Assembly (NCBI GenBank): GCA_964016885.1
Contig: OZ024747.1
Location: 62,372,001-62,436,000, forward strand
Direction of reading: 5' to 3'
Length of the DNA stretch: 64,000 nucleotides
DNA from: Eledone cirrhosa
Taxonomy: Eukaryota
Below the pieces are notes generated by a model that was not told the origin of the DNA, searched no databases, and saw only the letters and a list, made by a program, of their open reading frames with translations. This document shows positions 11,424 to 11,727 of this stretch, piece after piece; the stretch's first letter is position 1, and each line of letters starts with the position of its first letter. Made by a program: the position numbers and the translations under genes.

Positions 11424-11522
11424 GGATTTCGCTTCAAGCATAGCTTTATACAATATGTATAAATATTTCGTATCTCCAAAGAAATACAGGGGGGAAAAGT
11501 ATATATTCTCAGCTGTCTTCTA

Positions 11523-11616
11523 GTCCAGCAGTCGCAAGCGGTGGGAGGGACCGTCCTGACGAAGGCCAGTTAAGCCTGAAATGCATAGACGGTTGTCCCC
11601 CTTGCTTCTGCTGGAC
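11523..11616 (+). ncRNA. Type I hammerhead ribozyme with extended stem I
   Basis: ACCGTC-CTGACGA-AGGC(CAGTTAA)GCCT-GAAA-TGCA-TA-GACGGT; outer pairings GGGA/TCCC, GCAAG/CTTGC, GTCCAGCAG/CTGCTGGAC. Confidence 0.85.
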
Positions 11617-11727
11617 ATCACCAGAGGGCGTTAGACCCCCGGTGTTTGGATAGCTACGGCTTCCTAAAACTGTATTTCTTTGGAGATACGAAATATTTAT
11701 ACATACATATATATATATATAAGCAGA

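Follow-up and report, generated by a model that had tools for sequence, protein, structure and literature searches.

A hammerhead retrozyme copy in Eledone cirrhosa that bears the insertion signature of Penelope-like elements

Within a run of TA repeats, the genome of Eledone cirrhosa carries a short sequence that combines the core of a hammerhead ribozyme with a perfect inverted repeat, and the question it raises is what kind of element could have left such an arrangement behind. The locus lies in a stretch of 64,000 nucleotides (contig OZ024747.1, positions 62,372,001 to 62,436,000, forward strand), called the window here, whose coordinates are used throughout. A preliminary description made from the sequence alone took it for a self-contained, GC-rich, rod-like hammerhead cassette of ~250 bp bracketed by 36-bp inverted repeats. 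Our analysis leads to a different reading, to which we assign a probability of roughly 80%: the locus holds a truncated member of a family of non-coding hammerhead elements of 323 nt (non-LTR retrozymes), likely reverse transcribed from a small RNA circle and inserted at (TA)n by a Penelope-like element (PLE) enzyme. The parts of this copy are listed in Table 1.

Table 1. Parts of the window copy and its flanks. Monomer position 1 is the first base past the predicted cut.
Feature	Position in window	Strand	Basis or remark
(TA)n target, left	11389..11417	.	sequence
Inverted 5'-truncated arm, 72 bp, monomer ~83-154, ends at long (tailed) site B	11418..11489	-	
36-nt tail, this end only, monomer ~119-154	11418..11453	-	unnoticed in the preliminary description
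ACAG microhomology at inversion junction	11486..11489	.	arm matches overlap at 1533-1536 of locus L001
Forward arm, monomer ~222-323 then 1-118, reads through predicted cut, ends at short site A	11490..11705	+	
5' strand of extended stem I	11523..11555	+	predicted fold and pair counts
Type I hammerhead core (CUGACGA, GAAA, UA)	11556..11587	+	fold and motif; predicted cut after 11587
3' strand of extended stem I	11588..11616	+	predicted fold and pair counts
Forward-arm stretch common to inverted arm (the 36-bp repeat)	11670..11705	+	36/36 match
(TA)n-rich target, right	11706..11800	.	sequence

The hammerhead itself stood up well to scrutiny. Its claimed sequence elements, CTGACGA (11556-11562) and GAAA-TGCA-TA (11578-11587), are in place together with the stem I pairing ACCGTC/GACGGT, and the core consists of a 4-bp stem II with a 7-nt loop and a 1-bp stem III closed by the palindromic UGCA. 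These helices match the canonical type I definition of PMC4209133 (helix I of 6 bp, helix II of 4 bp, helix III of 1-2 bp with a palindromic loop; papers are cited here and below for those parts of their text that were available). The minimum-energy structure of the 252 nt originally delimited contains the hammerhead (z -10.7), and z is still -3.25 once the inverted arm is removed. An extended stem I exists, as had been proposed, at a smaller size: it comprises ~26 pairs in total, ~19 of them past the proximal 7, rather than ~25 more. The expected Rfam hammerhead match did not materialise, with no match in the window at the gathering score and no hammerhead among the 19 matches at E ≤ 10, and the basis for the assignment is therefore the fold, the core invariant in 17 relatives and covariation. 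These 17 aligned relatives were chosen by the core pattern, and the core is invariant in all of them; core conservation among copies was dropped as a separate line of evidence since many loci had been selected by the exact core pattern. A degenerate core pattern matched the genome 3016 times versus 2 for the reversed control. The hammerhead fold and core are not due to chance.

Covariation, suggested earlier as a check, was found in the 17 sequences as two-sided change in 9 of 31 named pairs; there were 29 covarying cells versus 8.4 in shuffled alignments, with 0/500 shuffles reaching the observed cells and score and 2/500 the observed pairs, under a control that ignores the relatedness of the sequences, and slid controls were far lower. 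The signal sits in stem II and the proximal part of stem I, in the palindrome, where UGCA becomes CGCG, and in the outer helix, to which only the two most distant rows contribute; the middle helices of the extended stem I show no covarying pairs in the same 17 sequences. In axolotl retrozymes, hammerheads with a 1-bp helix III and a palindromic tetraloop cleave poorly as monomers and well as dimers (PMC7229834), and eight of nine predicted Xenopus retrozyme dimers were without cleavage (bioRxiv 2026.07.22.740005). Three further hammerhead-like motifs, belonging to other repeat families, occur in the window at 16680 (-), 55593 (-) and 58195 (+), and such motifs were seen in fetched loci too.

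The boundaries of the element had to be redrawn. The inverted repeat of 11454-11489 with 11670-11705 is indeed perfect (36/36), and (TA)n flanks the element on both sides. The element starts, however, at 11418 and not at 11454, and only the inner 36 bp of its 72-bp left arm are paired on the right. The repeat is thus no fixed bracket of a ~250-bp unit; it is the stretch over which two cDNA arms overlap, and it is different in each insertion. Nor is the copy self-contained, as its forward arm carries ~220 of 323 nt and one hammerhead. The composition is not GC-rich (0.43-0.46), and instead of a rod the circular period folds into one long stem plus a multibranch loop. The lack of an ORF was borne out (the longest Met-started frame in the copy is 32 aa), and the view of the element as retrozyme-like, non-autonomous and PLE-linked is supported. 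With its ends in (TA)n, a target-site duplication, which is long in those retrozymes that have one, is unreadable. Having one hammerhead and less than one period, this copy would be a dead end from which alone no unit circle could arise; it is a real retrozyme copy and ordinary debris of the insertion process. Just to its left, between TA runs, a 157-bp piece of another repeat (11230-11386) ends in a GC-rich hairpin; similar pieces (81-91% alike) occur at numerous loci, and some of these pieces form inverted pairs.

The complete unit can be read from natural tandem copies in the 3.0-Gb assembly, where the period from cut to cut is 323 nt (312, 332 and 337 in copies with indels). The period is circularly closed: wherever one starts within the 323 nt, what lies upstream is always the monomer position that comes before. 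The best matches in the genome are 95-98% identical over positions 33-252 of the query (best 40 of 1996 candidates scored), and an exact 44-nt hammerhead pattern had 249 matches versus 0 for its control. Tandem dimers were found as well, with 14 arms holding at least two hammerheads; 52 of 191 arms are longer than one period and the longest reaches ~2.3 periods. Over a natural stretch of 2.3 periods the longest Met-started frame is 42 aa. The predicted circular fold keeps the hammerhead formed, with z of -2.3, -4.0 and -4.0 in three of four natural periods and -1.25 in the fourth, which has a deletion. The family is split ~50:50 into two subfamilies, with a mean divergence of 2.9% from the column majority, and older subfamilies with altered stem II and stem I were revealed among the degenerate-pattern matches listed. 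A distant member of the lineage (L176:1942-2044), 66% identical to the monomer, carries the palindrome CGCG in stem III. Contigs assembled from two sequencing runs, of unstated kind, contain head-to-tail joints, in which DNA tandems and circles are indistinguishable, and a loose-end motif taken from these contigs had no match in the genome. The copy is a metazoan non-LTR retrozyme that bears a Penelope-like insertion signature.

This signature was read from 111 insertions, obtained from 120 fetched loci after 9 duplicates of the same insertion were dropped; 35 had been found by similarity and the other 76, all from contigs C1-C3, by pattern. Tail-out pairs make up 81 of the 111, 29 are in a single orientation and one is complex. 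The outer 3' ends (n = 191) fall at site A (~118; 82 ends), at site B (~155; 84 ends), ~37 nt apart, or elsewhere (25 ends). When both ends of a tail-out pair could be scored (n = 58), 54 pairs were A/B, 2 A/A and 2 B/B (p = 1.6e-12 versus independent choice), and the rule held for 35 of 37 pairs in the pattern-found subset; in 23 of the 81 tail-out insertions an end lies outside both A and B. The tail is carried by the longer arm in 23 A/B pairs and by the shorter arm in 31. A TA run is present at one end or both in 94 of 111 insertions, and the arms overlap by at least 4 nt at 21 of 81 junctions versus 2% under the null, a figure that BLAST end points may inflate somewhat. The insertions therefore display an inverted 5'-truncated copy, a one-sided tail of 30-40 bp and a microsatellite target, of which the first two are PLE hallmarks (PMC8557442).

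The same insertions speak to the notion of a MITE-like DNA element that went into a TA site, has terminal inverted repeats of 36 bp and carries a captured hammerhead. The perfect repeat and TA flanks of the window copy are what such an element would have, but its two arms differ by 36 bp in length, the left being the longer, an inversion is lacking in 29 of 111 copies and no two copies have the same inner junctions. Further, the arms share anything from ~0 to 363 bp (median ~198), so that the 36 bp are particular to the window copy, and no fixed terminal inverted repeats common to all copies were found among the 111 insertions. We give this explanation next to no credence. The layout is also not that of plant LTR retrozymes, which have a type III hammerhead and two direct LTRs, as the topology here is type I and no LTR pair was found.

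A retrozyme copied by PLE machinery leaves the nature of the template to be considered. The 5' ends of the arms are scattered round the period and none of the 191 lies at the predicted cut, so the enrichment expected from cleaved linear templates was not found. Both arms of an insertion carry the same subfamily allele in 56/59 and 28/30 insertions at two diagnostic 50:50 sites (counts that exclude L116, a later duplication), and derived variants are common within an insertion at 0.0077 per site versus 0.0026 under the null, three times as often (L116 included).

Further evidence comes from a sister family of 311 nt with the same layout, uncovered by the degenerate pattern, which has 1034 exact tailed ends in the genome and arrays of up to more than 20 near-identical units. 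All 21 resolved sister insertions are tail-out A/B (24 were examined, 3 being incomplete owing to a gap or to the limits of the fetched range; loci L161-L164 and L218-L237, contig C1); as 20 of the insertions were fetched via their B end, the test is whether the other end is A. Among the first 100 of the 1034 tailed ends, no two face outward within 10 kb. The haplotype is uniform across all units of both arms (10/10, 14/14 and 21/21 units) and different between insertions, as expected from copying round one circular monomer. This family is very young, younger than the 323-nt family.

These observations bear directly on the idea that the same family, driven by a PLE, is copied from an uncleaved linear multimer transcribed from tandem loci, with the hammerhead incidental and no circle involved. 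It fits with the absence of arms ending at the cut, with most arms of the 323-nt family being shorter than two periods, and with uncleaved RNA as the main substrate of the Anolis PLE in vitro (PMC11167929), a property owing to which read-through alone is no proof of a circle. However, many sister haplotypes, each fixed in all units of both arms, would require a bottleneck of one monomer, and the hammerhead helices covary across subfamilies. The uniform sister haplotypes argue against a linear template, less so for the older 323-nt family, and we consider a linear multimer unlikely.

A circular template suggests the following course. Copies with at least two hammerheads would be transcribed, and their transcripts would cleave as dimers via the palindromic stem III and then be ligated to circles. 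The RT/GIY-YIG protein of a PLE may bind such an RNA circle and cut both strands of a TA tract, after which synthesis would start from one target strand at site A (~118 nt past the cut) and from the second strand at site B (~155). Both primed strands would copy round the circle, and the two cDNAs would be joined by microhomology. Several of these steps have precedents: hammerheads with a weak palindromic helix III cleave in dimeric form, and circular retrozyme RNA accumulates (PMC7229834); a PLE protein for which a dimer is predicted cleaves AT-rich DNA on both strands and extends each of them, with two internal start sites on the RNA that define the tail (PMC11167929). In the same study, the start site used by the Anolis PLE in vitro was no different between strands, and the RNA used was uncleaved. 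We would give even odds to the more specific proposal that each insertion takes one PLE dimer and one RNA circle with two fixed priming sites, both used for rolling-circle copying, and that the sister family is moving now with an intact Hydra-type element. If true, this one-circle model would explain the inverted pLTR and one-sided tail of PLEs, and DNA alone would prove that retrozyme circles are PLE substrates.

Candidate enzymes are encoded in the same genome. A PLE remnant occupies 13885-15438 of the window, in a 5'-truncated, broken Hydra-type copy that spans 13885-16520 and ends in (TA)n, the target of the Hydra clade (PMC8557442). In many copies of its family, the first of three, a frame of 785 codons is open (773 aa counted from Met), and the protein has the RWK, DKT and CxCX5C motifs that mark the Hydra clade. 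Copies of this family are 99.1-99.7% alike and form tail-out pairs with two end sites 118 nt apart, one per end in 4 resolved pairs. Two more Hydra-type families are older, with copies 91-99% and 94-98% alike and tails of ~90 nt, and the tails of Hydra-type elements (~90-118 nt) do not match the ~37 nt of the retrozyme. If age were the sole guide, the 323-nt retrozyme would pair with the third family or the second, and the sister family with the first. No Pfam family was matched by the PLE proteins. Broken non-LTR retrotransposons also occur in the window (4242-7800, 20230-23251 and 42594-46078), and two of their frames that were tested match RVT_1.

At three loci (L123/L248, L143/L249 and L147/L250) a retrozyme arm is joined without a TA spacer, and in the same sense, to a 5'-truncated PLE of the third family; the joins link the 3' side of the retrozyme to the middle or 3' UTR of the PLE at three different points, and the PLE has its own, different pLTR. 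Reading the joins as template switches that name the partner enzyme was set aside, since a later PLE insertion with target deletion turns A/A and B/B into A/B (two joins). A second reason not to count them as evidence is that the third family is the commonest of the three in retrozyme flanks, at 15 loci versus 5 and 1.

The PLE families also allow the alternative raised in the preliminary description itself to be judged, namely that the copy is a solo pLTR fragment of a coding PLE located elsewhere in the genome. The insertion architecture is identical to that of PLEs, three insertions abut PLE sequence, and true solo pLTR pieces from a coding family occur close by, such as the tail-out piece of the third family at 13690-13860, which has one short and one long end. 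This explanation does not survive the closure of the sequence round the whole 323-nt period, and no similarity of either monomer to the three coding Hydra-type families was found, a comparison that covered these three only. Further, the three abutting PLEs carry a different pLTR of their own and are joined at three different points, and the hammerhead, with a stem I of 6-7 bp and a stem II of 4 bp, is of the canonical kind and not the minimal one of PLEs (PMC4209133). A solo pLTR is thus very improbable, and the copy is best read as the non-coding retrozyme described above.

PLEs have been named as strong candidate movers of animal retrozymes (PMC7229834), and the link has been argued from co-occurrence and pLTR similarity, with the mechanism left open (bioRxiv 10.64898/2026.07.22.740005); the formation of tandem and inverted structures by PLEs has been called undefined (PMC8557442). 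Here, the retrozyme insertions themselves bear the PLE integration signature; one tail per insertion is almost a strict rule, and each insertion has a single haplotype. As templates of 311-323 nt and an intact 773-aa Hydra-type ORF occur in the same genome, both questions are testable in a published in vitro assay, for which the sister family is the best experimental material. A literature search that left most subscription papers outside its reach found no description of tail-out, one-tailed retrozyme insertions; in the available text, the word "inverted" does not occur in PMC7229834 and occurs in the preprint (bioRxiv 10.64898/2026.07.22.740005) only within a reference.

The family resembles the metazoan non-LTR retrozymes (PMC7229834; bioRxiv 10.64898/2026.07.22.740005) in its non-coding unit within the 150-450-bp range, its canonical type I hammerhead, a GC content below 50%, the occurrence of monomers and tandems and a hammerhead that can form within the predicted circle, and its stem III is like that of axolotl HHR_Amex1, with 1 bp and a palindromic tetraloop. 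Unlike metazoan retrozymes as far as described there, which form head-to-tail repeats only, most of its copies lie in (TA)n as inverted tail-out pairs of which only one side is tailed. In Xenopus, 24 of 57 retrozyme families have a sequence link to a pLTR, whereas none was found here with the three Hydra-type families compared. The hammerhead pairs of truncated Schistosoma PLEs, 100-700 bp apart on opposite strands, are a similar arrangement (PMC4209133); those motifs are minimal and were read as truncated coding PLEs, in contrast to the closed non-coding period found here. Partial tandems, an adjacent inverted 5'-truncated copy, a tail at one end and a (TA)n target are common to EN+ PLEs of the Hydra clade (PMC8557442), and two internal RT start sites downstream of the hammerhead to Poseidon of Anolis (PMC11167929). 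Unlike PLEs, the retrozyme has no RT or endonuclease ORF, a unit of 323 nt and a canonical hammerhead with a long stem I. In the twin priming of L1 elements, both target ends serve as primers on a single RNA and microhomology links the resulting cDNAs, which produces an inversion. The retrozyme insertions would be alike in that the inversion comes from two primings and microhomology joining, and different in their fixed internal sites, the lack of poly(A), arms that overlap in sequence and the possibility of several periods per arm. This class of retrozyme is already known, and the insertion footprint described here links it to the PLE machinery more directly than the available text of the cited papers does.
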